A stretch of DNA of 36,046 bases from a virus (taxonomy: Duplodnaviria; Caudoviricetes), in IMG/VR virus record IMGVR_UViG_3300022697_000115, positions 1 through 36,046 of that record; one strand, given 5' to 3'. Within the stretch, counting starts at the first letter, position 1, and every line of letters begins with the position of its first letter. The position numbers were made by a program, and so were the translations under genes. The notes under the pieces were generated by a model. It was not told the DNA's origin, searched no databases, and saw only the letters and a program-made list of their open reading frames with translations. Below, piece by piece: positions 1,859 through 9,242 of this stretch.

Positions 1859-2119
1859 ATGAGTGATCAAGAAACCCACCCAGTACAAACACCAGGGTAC
1901 GGCAGCAGAGAAAAAGCAAGGATATCAACTAGAATTACGTTACGTGCTTATGAAGTTTATTGTCATTTATTTGGCCCACAAGAAGCAATGATTACGGGTA
2001 GTTGTCGCGGTGGATTTAGTGCCGGTGAATTGATTTCGTTTTTGTATATTCACTCGTTTCCAAAAGACGAATGGAAAGACAGGTTTGCAGAAACATTTGA
2101 AGGGATGAAAGGCTTGTAA
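1859..2119 (+). CDS. Hypothetical phage protein
   Basis: AGGAG/AAGG RBS, operon context. Confidence 0.65.
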   Translation: MSDQETHPVQTPGYGSREKARISTRITLRAYEVYCHLFGPQEAMITGSCRGGFSAGELISFLYIHSFPKDEWKDRFAETFEGMKGL

Positions 2120-2121
2120 TC

Positions 2122-2325
2122 ATGACTGACCTTCGAAAAGATTATTTCGACGAAAAAGAAGCGGCCGCGTATATGTGTGTTTCTTCTAGCAAATTTCGCC
2201 AGATGGTCAACGAGTATACAATAAGTGTTGGACATTTTGGTAAAAAAAAGATATACCGGAAAACTGATTTGCAACGAGTAATCGAACAGGAAGCATTTAA
2301 TGGCAAGTATTTATCAGCGCAATGA
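2122..2325 (+). CDS. xis: Excisionase-like HTH protein
   Basis: YFDEKEAAAYMCVSSSKF HTH_17-like motif; overlaps the integrase start. Confidence 0.8.
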   Translation: MTDLRKDYFDEKEAAAYMCVSSSKFRQMVNEYTISVGHFGKKKIYRKTDLQRVIEQEAFNGKYLSAQ

Positions 2326-3292
2326 TACTAAATCTTGGTATCTCAAGTGGAACCAGGGCGGTAAATCTTACGCCGTAAACCTGACGAAAAAATATAAAGT
2401 TATTCTCGAAAAAGAAGCGCTGAAGTATAAACAAGCAAAAGAAACTGAGCTTCGTTTCGGTAAGAAAATTCTAAGCGATAACCTGATTTTTTTGAACTAC
2501 GCAGAACAATACAAAGATTGGTTTGTTGTCGAATATCCAACCTCGTACTATCGCATCGAGCAATTAATCAATCAACATCTAGCGCCCTACTTTAATTTTA
2601 TGCCAATTGATTGCATTCGAATTCGCGACGTCGAGCTGTATAAAGTTCAGCGATTAAAGACCGGAATTAAGCGCGCTACCGTAACGAAGGAAATGCGAAC
2701 ACTAAAAGCTATGCTTAATAAAGCTTGTCAGTGGGAATACCTAAATTTTAATCCGATCGCTAACTTAACGTATCCAAAAAACATTGACTCCGCGCCGGCG
2801 AAGTTTTTTACTGTTGATGAATTGGAGCTGATTTACAACAAATCAGACCGGGCGCATTGGTGGCGATTTTTGGCTAATACAGGATTACGTCGCGGGGAAG
2901 CCTTGGCGCTGCAACGCAAATGGATTGGATCAGACGGCCTAAAAGTCGTGTCTACCGAGTCAGCAAGAACCAAGTCTGGTCAGTGGCGCGACATTCCGCT
3001 ATTCGAAGGTGCCAAAGAGGCCCTAGATAATTTCGAAAACAAAGAGAAGCATCTTTATCCGCGCATAAATCCTAGCAGTATGAGTCGAGCGGCTATCAAG
3101 GATTTCCAGCGCGCTGGTGTTGGTGGATCAATGCACGCACTTAGACACTCGTTTTGTTCTCATCTAGTGATGGACGGTACGAGCCTGCGAGTAGTGCAAC
3201 AATTAGCCGGACACTCAAAAATCGAAGTTACCGAAAAATATGCTCATTTGTCGCCGGATTTCATCGCGCAGAATGTAAAACTGAAAATTTAG
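2300..3292 (+). CDS. int: Tyrosine recombinase (phage integrase)
   Basis: TGLRRGE, HALRH, LAGH and terminal YAH catalytic motifs; adjacent to attP. Confidence 0.95.
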   Translation: MASIYQRNDTKSWYLKWNQGGKSYAVNLTKKYKVILEKEALKYKQAKETELRFGKKILSDNLIFLNYAEQYKDWFVVEYPTSYYRIEQLINQHLAPYFNFMPIDCIRIRDVELYKVQRLKTGIKRATVTKEMRTLKAMLNKACQWEYLNFNPIANLTYPKNIDSAPAKFFTVDELELIYNKSDRAHWWRFLANTGLRRGEALALQRKWIGSDGLKVVSTESARTKSGQWRDIPLFEGAKEALDNFENKEKHLYPRINPSSMSRAAIKDFQRAGVGGSMHALRHSFCSHLVMDGTSLRVVQQLAGHSKIEVTEKYAHLSPDFIAQNVKLKI

Positions 3293-3354
3293 ATTTGCCG
3301 TAGCTAACGTAGCGAAATGGTACTAGATAATACTAAATAATGGCAATTAGTGAA

Positions 3355-3386
3355 TAAAAAAGGGCCAGCGAAAAACGCTAACCCTT
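3355..3386 (-). terminator. Rho-independent terminator downstream of the tRNA 3' fragment
   Basis: Minus strand AGGGTTAGCG-TTTTT-CGCTGGCCCT-TTTTT. Confidence 0.7.
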
Positions 3387-3395
3387 TGATTATAT

Positions 3396-3442
3396 TGGCG
3401 TCCCCAAGGGGATTCGAACCCCTGTTACCGCCGTGAAAGGGC
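3396..3442 (-). other. attP core: 3' portion of tRNA-Glu(TTC)
   Basis: Reverse complement GCCCTTTCACGGCGGTAACAGGGGTTCGAATCCCCTTGGGGACGCCA gives anticodon arm, T-arm and CCA; the 5' half is absent. Confidence 0.92.
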
Positions 3443-3685
3443 CAGCTAGGCCCTTGATTGATCTAAATAATAATTTTTAACGTAGCTAAACCGTAGCTTT
3501 TACGATGATTTGTAGTTAATTTACGCACTACAACCCCATTATAGTGAGAAAGTAAGCCTACCTTATTGATTTATATATAAATAATATGTTTTTGTAGGTT
3601 ACAAATTAGACCATATTTGATTATATGTGGTCAAATTAATCAATAGCTTAGTGCAGCTTTTGCGAATACAATAATTAAATAAGAT

Positions 3686-3713
3686 TTGACTTAGGCGATA
3701 TAACGCCTATAAT
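3686..3713 (+). promoter_or_regulatory. Sigma70 promoter with internal palindromic operator
   Basis: TTGACT-16-TATAAT; TAGGCG-atataa-CGCCTA inverted repeat spans the spacer. Confidence 0.8.
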
Positions 3714-3762
3714 TAACTCATCAACAACAAACGAGCCCCAAGCGGGCGAGAGGATAATCCAA

Positions 3763-4236
3763 ATGAAAGCAACTATCACTAAAACAACATCCGGCGGCGC
3801 AAAAATTACAGTAACTCACAGCGCATGCTTTTTAGATAAGTCAGCAGACGGCCAAGTCTACGGTAGTGAGTTTTTTAGCTCGCTAGACTGGATACAGCTA
3901 AGCAAGGACGGAAAAGACCTACTAGGCGGTAAAGAGGTCTCTACGACTCTCCCTGGTTTGCCCAGCGGTGCTGTAGCTGCATTACGCAACGGAAATAAAG
4001 CTCAGCCGATTTCGCAGGAAACCTTCGATTTGATAAATATGGCAAAAGAAGAAGCTAAAGAAGCTGCTGAAAAAGAATTCGGCGATATTCCAAAAAAATT
4101 AGAAATGGAAGAAAATGAAAAAATAGAGCGCATGTCCGCAAATTTCGACGCTGAACAAAAAGAAATCAAATCAAAAGTAGAAAGAGGATTTTGCTTAAAG
4201 TGTAAATCCTACTGTTTTGGTGATTGTAGCGCTTAA
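3763..4236 (+). CDS. Hypothetical protein with C-terminal Cys4 motif (candidate anti-defence)
   Basis: GFCLKCKSYCFGDC; first gene after the strong promoter; GAGGA RBS. Confidence 0.75.
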   Translation: MKATITKTTSGGAKITVTHSACFLDKSADGQVYGSEFFSSLDWIQLSKDGKDLLGGKEVSTTLPGLPSGAVAALRNGNKAQPISQETFDLINMAKEEAKEAAEKEFGDIPKKLEMEENEKIERMSANFDAEQKEIKSKVERGFCLKCKSYCFGDCSA

Positions 4237-4245
4237 TTATTAAGA

Positions 4246-4360
4246 GTCGCCCTCCGGGGTGTTGGATTGAAACTGTCAATTATTGGTTTTTATTAGTCGC
4301 GCCTACGGGCGTGCGGGTTGAAACTTTTAAATGTTTTTTGTAATGCGCCCCTCGCGGGCG
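4246..4360 (+). CRISPR. Degenerate type I-C-like mini-array: two repeat mimics plus a third hairpin, with 22 and 20 nt spacers
   Basis: GTCGCCCTCCGGGGTGTTGGATTGAAAC (4246-4273), GTCGCGCCTACGGGCGTGCGGGTTGAAAC (4296-4324), GCGCCCCTCGCGGGCG (4345-4360); no cas genes in the genome. Confidence 0.7.
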
Positions 4361-4373
4361 AAAGGAAATCTAA

Positions 4374-4631
4374 ATGAATCATCAAATTAAAATTAATCGC
4401 GCAGCAAAATTAGCACCTAAGCTGCCTATGGCGGCACGCGAAATTTGGAAATCTATCCCTGAGTCGCTTACTAAGTCACTGAGCGCAAAAGAATTAGCTC
4501 AAGTCGTCAATGCGCTAGACTCACACTGGCACAGATCAGGGGCACACAAAGAAAAAGAGATCATTAACGAGGGGTGCGTCTGGTCTGACAAACGTAACGC
4601 GTTACTCGATGTAGTGCTCCCAAATGCCTAA
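4374..4631 (+). CDS. Hypothetical protein (candidate Acr)
   Basis: AAGGA RBS, 85 aa, operon context. Confidence 0.7.
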   Translation: MNHQIKINRAAKLAPKLPMAAREIWKSIPESLTKSLSAKELAQVVNALDSHWHRSGAHKEKEIINEGCVWSDKRNALLDVVLPNA

Positions 4632-4923
4632 GCGATTAACTATAACAAAACGTATACGCAAAGTTAAAAGCCAGGAAAGCAAGACGCTTCTTGGCATAGG
4701 CTGGGCGGTTAGTTGGGATCGAGAGCAAACCCAGTTAATCAAGCGACTTGGTGTTGCTGTAAGAGATGACGATTTTAACGAGCTTTGTATTTGTGTTGGA
4801 CAACTTAAAGAGATGTCCGAGAAAAAGTTTTCCGCACTTAAGAACGTCATTAATATAGTTTCTGGCACCGAGGGAGAAATTGACTTAGCAGCCTCCGAAA
4901 AATTTTATCTGGAAAGAAAATAA
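4624..4923 (+). CDS. Hypothetical protein
   Basis: Overlaps the upstream gene end; 99 aa. Confidence 0.65.
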   Translation: MPKRLTITKRIRKVKSQESKTLLGIGWAVSWDREQTQLIKRLGVAVRDDDFNELCICVGQLKEMSEKKFSALKNVINIVSGTEGEIDLAASEKFYLERK

Positions 4924-4959
4924 ATCTAACAAAAAGTAAGATGCAGCGGGGAAAATAAA

Positions 4960-5169
4960 ATGAAAATACGCTTAATTACTCAAGATTACAGCGCGGTTAA
5001 TATTATAAATAGATCAGAGTTAACGGCATATCAAGAGCGCGCCTACGCGTTTGGACTTAAAATGCTAAGAGTTGAAAATCCTTTTTTACGGATTGAGGCG
5101 CGGTCTAGATTGGGTGTAAACAAATTATGCTTTAGCGACCCTTATCATCGTTTAGACCCAGACAGTTAA
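4960..5169 (+). CDS. Hypothetical protein
   Basis: GGGG RBS, 69 aa. Confidence 0.55.
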   Translation: MKIRLITQDYSAVNIINRSELTAYQERAYAFGLKMLRVENPFLRIEARSRLGVNKLCFSDPYHRLDPDS

Positions 5170-5198
5170 TTTAATTATTTTTTTTGAGGATTATAAAA

Positions 5199-5462
5199 AT
5201 GAACTTAAAAAACCTGTCGGAAATTACAAAAGAATTGATTAATGATACAAAACTGGCTTTTGAAGTAAATTTTATGCTGGGAGCGTTTGAAGTGTTAAAC
5301 GAAAAGGAATTGCTTTTCACAGTTTTTTTAAATATCGATAGTGGCTACGATGTCATAGACGTGGGCTCGTTTAAAGAATCTGAAAATTTTATTGATTTAG
5401 AAGAAATCAGCTCAGCTGAAGCATTACAGTCAATATGTGGTTTATTAATAAAGTATAAATAA
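5199..5462 (+). CDS. Small acidic hypothetical protein (candidate Acr)
   Basis: GAGGA RBS before the ATG at 5199; Glu/Asp rich. Confidence 0.65.
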   Translation: MNLKNLSEITKELINDTKLAFEVNFMLGAFEVLNEKELLFTVFLNIDSGYDVIDVGSFKESENFIDLEEISSAEALQSICGLLIKYK

Positions 5463-5488
5463 CCGACAACGCAAACGTGGTAAATTAG

Positions 5489-5911
5489 ATGATAGAAATT
5501 ACAAACGATGGCCCGTCTATTGTAAGCACAAACTATTTTGATACTGAACACGCAGAAAAAGGATTTTTTTATCTGACGTGGAATGCGGGCGTGGGTAGGA
5601 TATTAGTTCCTGACGTGCAATTAAGTGCTTTAAACGAAATGGAAACCGCCGATTTTGTGATTGTCTCGCGTGGTTCTTGGGCCGATCAGAACGACCGGGA
5701 GGCGCTAGAATTGTTATGGGAAGACAGCTCAAAGTCGCCGTATGTCATCACGTTAGTAACAGAACAGTGTGACAGGCTGTTACCTGACACGGATCAAGGT
5801 GGTGGCTTTAAAATCGCCGCGTGGACACGCTCAGGAATAGCTAATGAATGGCCGGGAAAATACCGCGAAGTTGAAAACCTGCCGTTTTTAAAGTCATGGA
5901 AAGAACATTAA
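5489..5911 (+). CDS. Conserved mobile-element protein, resembling plasmid CcgAII-type proteins
   Basis: WNAGxxRxLVPD...ALELLWED...EQCDRLLP...QGGGF...WTR motifs recalled from plasmid proteins; family name uncertain. Confidence 0.55.
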   Translation: MIEITNDGPSIVSTNYFDTEHAEKGFFYLTWNAGVGRILVPDVQLSALNEMETADFVIVSRGSWADQNDREALELLWEDSSKSPYVITLVTEQCDRLLPDTDQGGGFKIAAWTRSGIANEWPGKYREVENLPFLKSWKEH

Positions 5912-5965
5912 ATAGCTCAAAGGCGAGCGGTAACTCAGTTATTAATTGTAAAATACGCGAAGGCA

Positions 5966-6232
5966 ATGAAAAATAATCTAACAACAACTTACATCGAATT
6001 TACGACACTCCAGCCCGGTTACGAAAAAGTTGACTGCGCGAGAGATTTGGCAGAAAGTTTTGATAGAGCGTACGACGTTAACAAGCTTAATAAATGGGCG
6101 CGTGGCGGAGAATCTTTACCTAAAAATGTGCGTGATCACATGCTACGTACTGTACTCGGGTATGCGATCGAGAAAGCTGGCGGGCACCTTGATGACGATA
6201 TCATTGATGATGTTTGCGATAGGATTATATGA
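5966..6232 (+). CDS. HTH-like protein (candidate Aca-type regulator)
   Basis: CARDLAESF...VNKLNKWARGGESLP resembles an XRE/Cro HTH. Confidence 0.55.
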   Translation: MKNNLTTTYIEFTTLQPGYEKVDCARDLAESFDRAYDVNKLNKWARGGESLPKNVRDHMLRTVLGYAIEKAGGHLDDDIIDDVCDRII

Positions 6233-6510
6233 CTGACCTAGAAACCCTATCAGCCCAACATGCCGCCCACAGCAGCGACGAGATTGATGCAATCAAGGAA
6301 GCGGCAATGGATATCATGCAGGTCCGCAAAGGTCAGCGTGCTGGTGTTAAGCGAGTATTAGATGTAGCGTTGTATCTTATTGCTAAGAAGCTTACGCCCG
6401 ATATGATTAATGTTGTGCGGGATGCGCCAAAACCGCCGCCGGAACCTAAAAATAAAGTCTTGGCTAGCCCTTTTCTGAGTGAAGATGACCACAGAAAATA
6501 CAAAACGTAG
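6229..6510 (+). CDS. Hypothetical protein
   Basis: ATGA overlap with the upstream gene. Confidence 0.65.
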   Translation: MTDLETLSAQHAAHSSDEIDAIKEAAMDIMQVRKGQRAGVKRVLDVALYLIAKKLTPDMINVVRDAPKPPPEPKNKVLASPFLSEDDHRKYKT

Positions 6511-6526
6511 AATCGTATGTAGCGAC

Positions 6527-6814
6527 TCAGTGGATTTGCTGCGCTTTAATGATTACATCGATTCGGCTTCGTTTAATTTTTATCAGTGAGTCGAGCACTT
6601 TTATTTTTACCGGGTCTGTCTCCCAGCCACGCTGTATCTCCAATTCTTCCGCGCGCTCTTGAAGTCTCGACAACGTTATGATCGTTACAATTTTAACCCC
6701 GTCCTCTTTTTTCATCCATCGAGCGTCCCCAGCCCAAGCGGCACCGCTGAGTAGTATTATGATGCCGAGATAAATTGTACGGAAGTCTGCAAATATGCTG
6801 GCGATCTTTTTCAT
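6527..6814 (-). CDS. Membrane-anchored coiled-coil protein (possibly lysis associated)
   Basis: N-terminal hydrophobic helix; coupled to the holin-like gene. Confidence 0.6.
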   Translation of the reverse strand: MKKIASIFADFRTIYLGIIILLSGAAWAGDARWMKKEDGVKIVTIITLSRLQERAEELEIQRGWETDPVKIKVLDSLIKIKRSRIDVIIKAQQIH

Positions 6815-7380
6815 TTCTTTAGCGCTCCGATTAGGTTGGCAATTGATCCAAACGGTTGCTCGGTTGCCGCACTATATCGCGCCATTTTTTCTTTTGTACG
6901 CATCCCGAAATAGGATCGCAGTAAAACGGTAGGTGTGGCAATAATGGCTAGCATAAGCTGCCATGAGTTCGCGAGCGCCGATAACGTATTGCTGTCTTCT
7001 GTTGCTATCGCTACAGCCCAAACCAAAACAAAGATAATAACAACCACGACGACTACCCAAGCCATCATTAGCGCTATAAATGGTCGAGTGCTTGATCCGG
7101 CTTCATCAGCTTGCGCGAGTGATGCCTGTATCCCCTCCCATGCGCTTATTTCTGCGATCTGTACATCAAGCTGTTTTTCCATTAATGACGCTCGCTGCGC
7201 AGGAGGCAACTGCTGTACTGCCAGCCTAATATCTCCGCCCGTCGCCGAATCTGGTAGTTTTTTATCATCGGGTAGAATTGCATTTATAGCACCAAGGATT
7301 GCAGGCCCTCCCGGTATAAACGTGGACGCAACAGAAAGAAGCGGACCTTTTAATGTTTCGAATAATTTGCTGAAATTCAA
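6811..7380 (-). CDS. Holin-like protein (GTA holin 3TM-like)
   Basis: PGGPAI N-terminus, TRPFIA followed by TM segments, YFGMR C-terminal motif. Confidence 0.7.
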   Translation of the reverse strand: MNFSKLFETLKGPLLSVASTFIPGGPAILGAINAILPDDKKLPDSATGGDIRLAVQQLPPAQRASLMEKQLDVQIAEISAWEGIQASLAQADEAGSSTRPFIALMMAWVVVVVVIIFVLVWAVAIATEDSNTLSALANSWQLMLAIIATPTVLLRSYFGMRTKEKMARYSAATEQPFGSIANLIGALKK

Positions 7381-7391
7381 AAAAATCCCCT

Positions 7392-9242
7392 TTATAAATG
7401 CTTAATAACAGTAGCTCTAAACGTCCCATTAGCGGGATTTAAAGTGCCAGTACTCGCATTCCAAAACCTAATTGTCACAGTATCAGCCGCAGAAACAAAT
7501 CCCCAGTAACCACAACAAGCCCCCGGAACCGACGCGTTAGGAACGCCTAAGATTACATCGTTACCGTCATCTACTACGGCCCCGTTAACAGTTATGGTCA
7601 AATCAGAATGTTCTTGGGTTAGCGTGCTAGGAAAGTCTAATGTAGCTTCGGCGCTTATAATATGATTAACAGTTGTTAGCGACCCTGCGCTAGATTGAGG
7701 GCCAATTATTAATCCAGTATGACGCAGGTTAAACTTATTAAGCTGTGTCTGAGCTGTGCCTGTTATTATGGGGTTTCCAGACGGCTTGACCATGTTAGAT
7801 ATGATGGTCCCAGACTGAGAGCCAGTTAACTCAATATCAGTCGTGTTATTTTGATAAAATCCGCCGATGTCATTATTGTTTCTGCTTGTTGTGACGCCGA
7901 CAGCACATATCTCAATACGGCCACGAATGACAGAGCCATCTGACTGTAGATTTATACCGATTGGACAAGCATCGATAGCGCCATAAAATAATAGCTCCGC
8001 ACCTGTATTAGCAATATCAATTCCTATCGCAGCACAGTTAGCAATAAAGCCACCTTGGACCAATATTCCAGTGACAGAGGATAGGGTGCGAATCCCAATA
8101 TCGGCACTTCGGATGTTTGTACCTAGGATGTGGGGCAGGATTATCGAGTCGCCAGTCCCATCTAGTAAAACCCCAGTTGCCCCAGTCTTTTTAAAACTCT
8201 TTATACCACAATTAATAATATGAGGATGATTCATTCGGCGAATACGTATAGCGCCAAGAGATTTGTCTTGCAAAGCGCTGTCGTCCTGAAACCCAATTGA
8301 TTCAATTCTGGGGCCGCCATGTATTGTTGCTGAAGCGCTCCCGAAATCGAATATGTAAATTCCTTTGTCAGTTACTAATTCGGTTGCTCCCGCTGTGGTT
8401 GTGGCTGATGTTCCATATTCCCCTTTCCCCTCCCCAATTATATTAACGTTGTGTTTCGTGGAAACGATCGCAGAATCAACACGACCCTTACCCGCTGAAT
8501 AATTAATTGTACCGCCAGATATTGGCATCGAGCTATGGCAATTATTTAGCGCGCTACTTATATCAAGCAGTGCTGTTCTGTCTTCATAATCTTTTATTTC
8601 GGCCCCAGTCATAAAACGAAATATATGGCCATACTGGTACTGCATATTTACTACACCGTTTTCTACGGACTTAGGGGGGTAAAATTGCTGCTGAGAACTC
8701 GTTAAATCAACCGCAGGACCAACTTGCGCATTCGTCATTGCTGCATTAAGGCTGCCGCCTGAATCGACTACAACCATCACCGTTGTATCAGTTACAAATG
8801 CTGACGAAAGCACGGTACCATAAACATTAGACCCGCCCGTTAATTTTACTCTGCGCCCCGCGTGGTACTTGGTTGTTTGATCTATACCAGAGATGGTAAA
8901 TGTGGTTGTTGATGTGCGTGTCGCGGCTTCGGCTTGACTCCATAAGTCCGCATCAAACCCTAAATCTGATACTGGATTTGCCGGGTAATTTGGCTGCGTA
9001 AATCCATTTTTATCGGTAAGTTCAACTGAGTATTCCCCTGGCTCATAAAATATATCTCCAAACTGTCCTTGATCATTTGCAACAACCGGATTTGTATTCT
9101 CTTTGCCTGCGGTTAGGTTCTTGTCAGTAAATGTGTCTTTTAATTTATTCGTGGACGCATCTCGGAAATATAGCAAAGCCCCTGGCAACGCCTTGAAATT
9201 TGCATCATTAACGGATTGATAAGGTAAAACGAAGCGGCCCAT
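7392..9242 (-). CDS. Tailspike / receptor-binding protein with beta-helix
   Basis: N-terminal particle-binding-like domain (LLYF...NTNPVVANDQGQF), pectin-lyase-like GI repeats, P22 gp9 position. Confidence 0.8.
   Translation of the reverse strand: MGRFVLPYQSVNDANFKALPGALLYFRDASTNKLKDTFTDKNLTAGKENTNPVVANDQGQFGDIFYEPGEYSVELTDKNGFTQPNYPANPVSDLGFDADLWSQAEAATRTSTTTFTISGIDQTTKYHAGRRVKLTGGSNVYGTVLSSAFVTDTTVMVVVDSGGSLNAAMTNAQVGPAVDLTSSQQQFYPPKSVENGVVNMQYQYGHIFRFMTGAEIKDYEDRTALLDISSALNNCHSSMPISGGTINYSAGKGRVDSAIVSTKHNVNIIGEGKGEYGTSATTTAGATELVTDKGIYIFDFGSASATIHGGPRIESIGFQDDSALQDKSLGAIRIRRMNHPHIINCGIKSFKKTGATGVLLDGTGDSIILPHILGTNIRSADIGIRTLSSVTGILVQGGFIANCAAIGIDIANTGAELLFYGAIDACPIGINLQSDGSVIRGRIEICAVGVTTSRNNNDIGGFYQNNTTDIELTGSQSGTIISNMVKPSGNPIITGTAQTQLNKFNLRHTGLIIGPQSSAGSLTTVNHIISAEATLDFPSTLTQEHSDLTITVNGAVVDDGNDVILGVPNASVPGACCGYWGFVSAADTVTIRFWNASTGTLNPANGTFRATVIKHL

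Follow-up and report, generated by a model that had tools for sequence, protein, structure and literature searches.

This report concerns an operon of eight small genes at positions 3686 to 6510 of a virus genome (Caudoviricetes; IMG/VR record IMGVR_UViG_3300022697_000115). The entire record of 36,046 nucleotides (nt) was analyzed and is called the window. Between its first two open reading frames (ORF1 and ORF2), the operon carries an array of two degenerate type I-C CRISPR repeats that likely is a Cracr (Cas-repressing RNA anti-CRISPR), a described class of RNAs and arrays (Liu et al., bioRxiv 10.1101/2024.10.29.618823). Its target class could be identified: the promoter between cas3 and cas5c in related type I-C loci. 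The operon as a whole likely is governed by a new family of regulators of the Aca (anti-CRISPR-associated) type. The published systems named below are compared through parts of the sources cited, and each comparison applies to those parts.

The repeat-spacer array and its host counterparts

The array spans positions 4246 to 4362 and consists of a repeat, 22 nt, a second repeat, 17 nt and a hairpin, which is followed by the ribosome-binding site of ORF2.

4246..4273, + strand: degenerate type I-C repeat R1, with a hairpin and an intact 11-nt handle
4274..4295, + strand: spacer S1 (22 nt), almost a copy of a regulatory spacer in the host loci; behind a TTC protospacer-adjacent motif (PAM), it complements the -35 box in the promoter between cas3 and cas5c
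4296..4324, + strand: degenerate type I-C repeat R2, the best repeat match in the genome
4325..4341, + strand: possible second spacer S2 (17 nt), target not found
4342..4362, + strand: terminal hairpin R3, a repeat-like stem lacking the handle, directly before the ORF2 ribosome-binding site

When a real type I-C repeat (from locus L033) is used as the reference, R1 and R2 are the two best matches in the genome, with local scores of 15 and 18, respectively, compared with best scores of 11 to 16 per genome in 20 shuffled genomes. Both retain the hairpin plus an 11-nt handle that ends in TTGAAAC ahead of the spacer. R3 agrees with the repeat stem at 14 of 16 nt and is indistinguishable from an Aca-type RNA hairpin; in the host units, too, the last element is a hairpin, and the cas5c ribosome-binding site comes after it. 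Rfam gave no match at the repeats. The published rule for type I-C processing yields computed guides of 51 nt for S1 and 49 nt for S2, near the 48-50 nt reported for type I-C crlRNAs.

The first letters of S1, TGTCAA, complement the -35 consensus; as with the guides of the Cracr preprint (10.1101/2024.10.29.618823), this pointed to a guide that targets a promoter. The prediction that a host regulatory RNA shares the S1 seed was tested by scanning a metagenome collection once with the repeat tail plus the first 9 nt of the spacer, with position 6 left free. Seven matches were obtained: three non-repeats, one ordinary array spacer, and three units located between cas3 and cas5c (loci L028, L029 and L030). 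In these three loci a repeat-22 nt-repeat unit lies directly before cas5c in a cas3-cas5c-cas8c-cas7 arrangement, and the locus genes pass the Cas5c, Cas8c and Cas7c cut-offs (identities checked for L028 and L030). The host regulatory spacers have the same 22-nt length as S1 and are identical to it at 19 (L028), 17 (L029) and 19 (L030) of the 22 positions. The 10 PAM-proximal nt are shared with all three, the first 9 of them having been the query, and outside the query positions the identity is 10/13 in L028 and L030 and 8/13 in L029. The location of the unit, the 22-nt length, the distal spacer identity and the target with its TTC PAM were absent from the query.

The target lies about 320 nt upstream of cas5c, where a TTGACA box followed by GAA represents a TTC PAM and protospacer on the opposite strand. 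A separate search for Cas5c in 400 gammaproteobacterial genomes returned 15 loci, one of which (L035, in genome G107) has the same module; it was found through its Cas5 protein, independent of the S1 seed. The G107 spacer and target differ jointly from those of the other loci and remain complementary as far as position 14, save at positions 6 and 12, which are reported to be unpaired in type I-C crlRNA modules (10.1101/2024.12.27.630466). Behind the TTC, S1 pairs over 10 nt in L028 and L029 and over 9 nt in G107, so that such pairing is found in three of the four loci. No S1 site was found in the remaining 14 Cas5c loci.

In all four loci a conserved ORF of 50-56 amino acids (aa), with one C-terminal hydrophobic segment, is located between the promoter and the repeat unit (L028:4050-4220; L029:198-356; L030:3954-4121 (minus strand); also in G107). 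The promoter precedes both this ORF and the genes for Cas5, Cas8 and Cas7. Searches of NCBIfam, Pfam and PADLOC gave no match to the ORF. The gene order (cas3, a promoter with a TTC-PAM target at -35, an inserted gene, a repeat unit, cas5c) is that of the CRISIS/type I-C crlRNA modules of Shu et al. (10.1101/2024.12.27.630466), whose products measure 48-57 nt and likewise leave positions 6 and 12 unpaired. Because the locus has this layout, the ORF is, by analogy, a candidate CRISPR-supervised toxin or defense gene, although none of the ten systems set out in that source corresponds to it. Two further type I-C loci, L049 (G405:C190) and L038, carry a repeat-like unit between cas3 and cas5c; the unit in L049 is reversed and is followed by a small hydrophobic ORF.

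Four of the features by which a Cracr is recognized are present in the phage array: an origin in a mobile element outside a CRISPR-cas locus, repeat hairpins that bear a handle, a shared seed, and a PAM-flanked promoter match. In the Cracr preprint (10.1101/2024.10.29.618823), the class is similarly composed of viral repeat-spacer-repeat units; their spacers have 9 or more PAM-proximal nt in common with a host crlRNA, and match a cas promoter behind a PAM. That source also predicts two-spacer type I-C arrays (nine arrays, with a Neisseria example) and describes linkage to protein anti-CRISPRs (Acrs), whereas the tests it describes cover types V-A, I-E and I-F but not I-C. The phage array differs from those described in lying between two protein genes of an Aca-like operon, in having a last hairpin that abuts a ribosome-binding site, and in targeting a cas3-cas5c intergenic promoter that precedes a hydrophobic ORF of 50-56 aa. 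A second point of reference is RacrIC1 (Camara-Wilpert et al., PMC10651486), which likewise mimics a type I-C repeat and shares its transcript with protein genes of a prophage operon. However, Racrs are solitary repeats that act by sequestration, with no second repeat within 100 bp, whereas the phage unit has a pair of repeats, separated by 22 nt, and its spacer has a target in a promoter.

An earlier note on this DNA, made from its letters alone, had placed repeat mimics inside the transcript and read them as RNA inhibitors. They do lie within the operon, between ORF1 and ORF2, but the repeats belong to a repeat-spacer-repeat array rather than being solitary decoys. A spacer-guided repressor of the host cas/toxin promoter accounts for the RNA better than a repeat mimic that sequesters Cas proteins.

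In viral scans the S2 seed gave 22 matches, none with a repeat, and the S1 and S2 seeds together returned from other phages only these 22 and two ordinary array spacers. Two viral contigs (L006:1-480 and L054) hold full type I-C arrays, and the leader-side repeat of L006 is degenerate.

The operon promoter and the ORF7 family

The array is embedded in a predicted transcription unit, whose regulatory elements and genes ORF6 and ORF7 are as follows.

3686..3713, + strand: predicted sigma-70 promoter TTGACT-16-TATAAT, 11/12 consensus
3692..3709, no strand: palindrome TAGGCG-N6-CGCCTA, predicted ORF7 operator, unique in the window, with the same placement upstream of other ORF7-family genes
3732..3750, + strand: hairpin in the 5' untranslated region (UTR), abutting the ORF1 ribosome-binding site (repeat family D14; fold z -1.8)
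5489..5911, + strand: ORF6, 140 aa, acidic with an isoelectric point (pI) of 4.5, from a conserved, beta-rich family that has no name, is found in phages and plasmids and often adjoins helix-turn-helix (HTH) genes
5966..6232, + strand: ORF7, 88 aa, an XRE-type HTH protein of an unnamed family, predicted from its model, a fold search and a family survey to be an Aca-type autorepressor

The promoter is the best of 15 sites within positions 2000-8000. The genome has two 11/12 sites where shuffled genomes average 0.7, which means that in 36 kb promoter strength by itself does not exceed chance. Unlike promoter strength, the palindrome with 6-bp arms inside the promoter spacer is beyond chance, given that such an inverted repeat occurs in 114 of 5000 random spacers. 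It occupies the whole spacer, and its final TA is the first TA of the -10 box. The other 11/12 promoter (window 26560, minus strand) has no palindrome and is located upstream of uncharacterized genes that precede the packaging genes. Downstream of the operon promoter, eight co-oriented ORFs of 69-157 aa occupy positions 3763-6510 and would be expressed from a single transcript. The 5' UTR hairpin is 80% like the hairpin that precedes ORF2 and may be an Aca-type RNA motif or a repeat remnant.

ORF7 has no match in Pfam, PHROG or NCBIfam, and a single-sequence search returned no relative. A profile seeded by two distant relatives that adjoin ORF6 homologues collected 169 proteins at E up to 0.001. 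The structure model, built from 76 family sequences, is a five-helix domain with a predicted local distance difference test (pLDDT) score of 96. The top rows of a fold search with it are nearly all XRE-type HTH proteins at Z 4-6. The best match is Aca7 (Z 6.2, root-mean-square deviation 3.4, 58 aligned), tied with generic regulators. The nearest named Atlas clusters are likewise HTH, and Foldseek with the model returned nothing at E up to 0.001. No match to the Pfam family Aca2_YdiL and, with the 76-sequence profile, no Aca chain at E up to 1 was obtained, in a comparison where some Acas have neither a structure nor a Pfam model. In genomes, the profile finds the family in 8 of 400 Gammaproteobacteria and in 1/7 and 2/81 genomes of two orders; among 401 Pseudomonadota it finds only the centre genome.

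We surveyed the promoters of 18 ORF7-family genes at 17 loci, the window included. A palindrome ending in the TA of a -10 box precedes 7 of the 18, two have a palindrome in another geometry, and nine have none in the DNA examined, several of these nine being near contig ends or having only 1.5 kb of upstream sequence. The exact 18-nt form TA-N4-N6-N4'-TA is located before the first cluster gene in the window, twice in genome G305 and once in genome G110; its background rate is 7 in 439 kb of other loci. Other promoter-overlapping repeats accompany a family member on a Pseudomonas plasmid and one stand-alone gene.

An ORF7-family operon on a Marinobacter plasmid, one of those with a promoter palindrome, opens with a gene that matches Pfam Antirestrict at E 1e-29. 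In a phage locus (L001:341-856), a gene that resembles Cas11e/Cse2 (PADLOC E 2e-7; Pfam E 1.5e-4, below cut-off) is directly upstream of ORF7 and ORF6 relatives and might encode an Acr that mimics a Cas protein. Genome G305 carries two tandem small-gene operons (L095; G305:C51:36000-50000), each with a palindromic promoter and a terminal ORF7-family gene. GC-rich hairpins, read by eye, recur near ribosome-binding sites in these operons, and comparable hairpins are described for Aca1 and Aca2 operons (PMC13551039). The acr-aca operons in that source, which cover Aca1 to Aca14, share with the phage operon a strong promoter under an inverted repeat, small uncharacterized genes, an HTH gene near the end, and hairpins in the 5' UTR and between genes. 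They differ in that the ORF7 sequence matches no named Aca among solved structures or in Pfam, and that none of the ORF7-family operons was seen to encode a known acr gene. The accessions of five ORF6 and ORF7 relatives were not found in the papers searched, and six identifiers were absent from one supplement of PMC13551039, which is a narrow test of whether these families have been published. The ORF7 family is likely a new Aca-type family, with ORF7 a predicted autorepressor.

The layout given in the earlier note is borne out. This holds for the near-consensus promoter with a palindrome between its boxes, the eight small co-oriented genes, an HTH-like gene near the operon end, a position beside attP (the phage attachment site), and the convergence of the operon on the late operon, whose holin/tail end it faces at 6527. 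The note's markedly acidic gene is ORF5 (pI 4.2), and ORF6 is acidic as well. The proposal that positions 5966-6232 encode an Aca-like repressor gains from the HTH fold, the recurrent promoter palindromes and the antirestriction neighbor, but is not matched by a known acr gene in any family operon.

The remaining genes and the phage

The following features complete the operon and its integration module.

3763..4236, + strand: ORF1, 157 aa, homologue not found
4374..4631, + strand: ORF2, 85 aa, basic, homologue not found (weak phrog_18590, E 8e-4 over 24 aa)
4624..4923, + strand: ORF3, 99 aa, basic, family not found
4960..5169, + strand: ORF4, 69 aa, basic, family not found
5199..5462, + strand: ORF5, 87 aa from the ATG at 5199, acidic, family not found, an Acr candidate by composition only
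6229..6510, + strand: ORF8, 93 aa, family not found (weak PADLOC PDC-S32, E 0.016)
2300..3292, + strand: tyrosine integrase (Pfam Phage_integrase E 1e-16; PHROG 1 E 1e-47)
3392..3442, - strand: attP core, the 3' end of tRNA-Glu (98% over 51 nt versus an annotated tRNA-Glu), behind the integrase

ORF6 has 33 relatives at 53-69% identity in a protein collection, and the named relatives listed are all hypothetical proteins. Its homologues are found at 16 distinct phage or genome loci, and none occurs in the cultured-phage set. At 8 of the 16 loci a neighbor matches an HTH profile, several of these matches being below curated cut-offs; the neighbors profiled were a chosen subset, and two more look like regulators by eye only. 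One of the HTH neighbors is Aca2-like (PDB E 7e-6) and two belong to the ORF7 family. The ORF6 model is confident (pLDDT 88). It gave no fold match (best Z 3.9), no PDB sequence match and no Atlas lead, although a new fold is not thereby shown. A neighbor in locus L016 that seemed to resemble AcrIF15 was set aside because it had no PDB match. On a Shewanella plasmid (L025:879-6377) about 15 small hypothetical genes surround an ORF6 relative, and the six that were scanned have no informative Pfam match.

Six of the eight ORFs (ORF1 to ORF5 and ORF8) have no homologue in the searches run. Single-sequence searches returned no relative of ORF1 or ORF2, and neither the profile libraries nor 94 collected loci contained a relative of ORF3, ORF4, ORF5 or ORF8; PDB also held none of ORF5. 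A similarity of ORF1 to IHF-alpha (E 0.05-0.07) was rejected as a charged-helix artifact. From context alone, we infer that ORF1 to ORF5 and ORF8 have an anti-defense role. The broader suggestion of the earlier note, that these ORFs are new anti-CRISPR or other anti-defense proteins delivered together with RNA inhibitors, is partly supported: the anti-defense reading has comparative support, but no ORF matched a known Acr in the profile, sequence and fold searches run.

The record is circular, with a 99-nt terminal overlap. PHROG scans of its main ORFs identified P22-like portal, capsid, head-closure and ejection proteins, as well as a terminase, repressors and the integrase, and no cas gene. 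The phage is temperate and P22-like. The nearest terminases among cultured phages are 40-45% identical and come from phages of Gammaproteobacteria, so the host is likely a gammaproteobacterium. The exact 46-nt attP core is present in 8 of 401 Pseudomonadota genomes. Repeated CGTAGCTAA..CGTAGC motifs flank attP on both sides (window 3281-3314 and 3463-3496) and are likely integrase arm sites. Searches for close relatives of the phage locus returned only the tRNA match.

A proposed mechanism, its alternatives and its implications

We consider it probable that the locus is an early anti-defense operon whose Cracr array steers host Cascade to the cas5c-cas8c-cas7 promoter and which is shut off by ORF7, with the phage linked to the target loci by sequence likeness alone. 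The strong promoter would fire upon DNA entry. Host Cas5c, following the published type I-C processing rule, would cleave the mRNA on the 3' side of each of the hairpins R1 and R2 to release the 51-nt S1 guide and perhaps the 49-nt S2 guide. Cascade loaded with S1 would then bind TTC-TGTCAATTAT, a site that covers the -35 box in the promoter between cas3 and cas5c and is matched in the related loci. Pairing over 10 nt would be enough to block transcription and too little to cut. Such a block would lower Cascade synthesis and silence the hydrophobic ORF of 50-56 aa. Were protein Acrs or competing RNA to strip Cascade from the host's own guide, this candidate safeguard toxin would be set free. 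Some of ORF1 to ORF6 and ORF8 might, judging from context, counter CRISPR or other defenses. As ORF7 accumulates, it would bind the palindrome over the spacer and the -10 box and close the operon, as its fold and the family-wide placement of such palindromes suggest.

A number of observations weigh against this model. For the guide, S1 has a mismatch at 11 and thus pairs worse than the spacers of the hosts do; in L030 it pairs only through position 6, although in that locus position 7 is mismatched in the host spacer as well. It does speak for the guide that random phage 22-mers reach the PAM plus a 9-nt seed in the four promoter regions in 28 of 20,000 cases, but chance is somewhat greater than this control implies, since S1 opens with the -35 complement and short matches to promoters come more easily to it. 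S2 has no convincing target, giving only 8-nt matches across 18 cas loci, and the repeat scores of R3 (12) and the 5' UTR hairpin (10) are inside the shuffle range. For the host, a Cas5c match is absent from all eight genomes with the exact attP core, the best tRNA match to attP in G107 is only 88% over 43 nt, and neither a prophage of the phage nor a spacer against it was found in G107 or four other genomes. For the regulator, the exact 18-nt palindrome is absent upstream of all five plasmid members of the family. Palindromes of 19 and 20 nt with the same placement are found on a Marinobacter plasmid and two related Halomonas plasmids, but they emerged only with a relaxed pattern, the two Halomonas cases represent one and the same promoter, and a TrfB/KorA gene lies beside one of the two Halomonas promoters. 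The ORF7-family gene stands alone among housekeeping genes in three gammaproteobacterial genomes (L087, L088 and L089). For the protein genes, ORF6 homologues occur in 1157 plasmid records, 911 of them from Escherichia, and in the IncI1 example inspected (L023:7001-7414) the ORF6 relative is located one base before a site-specific recombinase gene, outside an acr-like cluster. Finally, no ORF matched a known Acr in searches of Pfam, PHROG and NCBIfam (all ORFs), PDB sequences (ORF1, ORF5 and ORF6) and folds (ORF6 only).

Some of these observations suit other explanations. The RNA could be a decoy of the Racr type that soaks up Cas5c and Cas7, with S1 a leftover of capture from a host locus that has no guiding role in the host of the phage. 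Pairing beyond position 10 has indeed decayed relative to the host spacers, a host with both the attP tRNA and the type I-C module was not found by searches through attP or through Cas5, and RacrIC1 shows that mimicry of a type I-C repeat within an acr mRNA is inhibitory on its own (PMC10651486). However, the seed was kept intact (10/10 versus the L028-L030 host spacers) while the repeats and the distal spacer drifted, and two repeats flank a spacer rather than forming a solitary unit. We hold a pure decoy to be improbable. Far less credible still, and largely refuted, is the idea of self-regulation, in which the array would direct host Cascade to a site in the phage genome. The phage does have -35 boxes of its own, but no exact site with PAM plus seed exists in the window, and two sites with one mismatch are within chance (15 of 100 shuffles).

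A different alternative concerns the protein genes, which might be no more than an accessory (moron-like) unit of the usual autoregulated kind, whose strong promoter the RNA array came to exploit by insertion. That no ORF matches an Acr, defense or anti-defense profile or structure would agree with this view, as would the abundance of ORF6 on IncI1 plasmids beside a recombinase and the stand-alone members of the ORF7 family. Set against it are the antirestriction gene and the Cas11e/Cse2-like gene (PADLOC E 2e-7) in ORF7-family operons, and the Aca2-like gene among ORF6 neighbors. We judge this alternative rather unlikely, although it deserves to be taken seriously, and it is compatible with a Cracr reading of the RNA.

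The model of a Cracr array in an Aca-type operon can also be extended, in a form that we regard as doubtful. A single transcript might answer the safeguard by which a type I-C system resists anti-CRISPRs: the captured guide would silence an undescribed membrane toxin of 50-56 aa and the Cascade genes, new Acrs would disable interference, and the new Aca family would exert control. Because R3 abuts the ORF2 ribosome-binding site, processing by host Cas5c would set the translation of the downstream genes, such that the operon might sense the CRISPR state of its host.

If the assignment is correct, the locus adds a Cracr of type I-C whose target is concrete and flanked by a PAM, in a subtype for which the defining preprint (10.1101/2024.10.29.618823) offers, in the parts drawn on here, predictions only. 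The conserved ORF of 50-56 aa under CRISPR control would be a candidate for a new toxin of the CRISIS/CreT type. ORF6 is an unnamed protein without a fold match that is nonetheless present in over a thousand enterobacterial plasmid records. The ORF7 family of HTH proteins can serve as a new marker for anti-defense operons in phages and plasmids.

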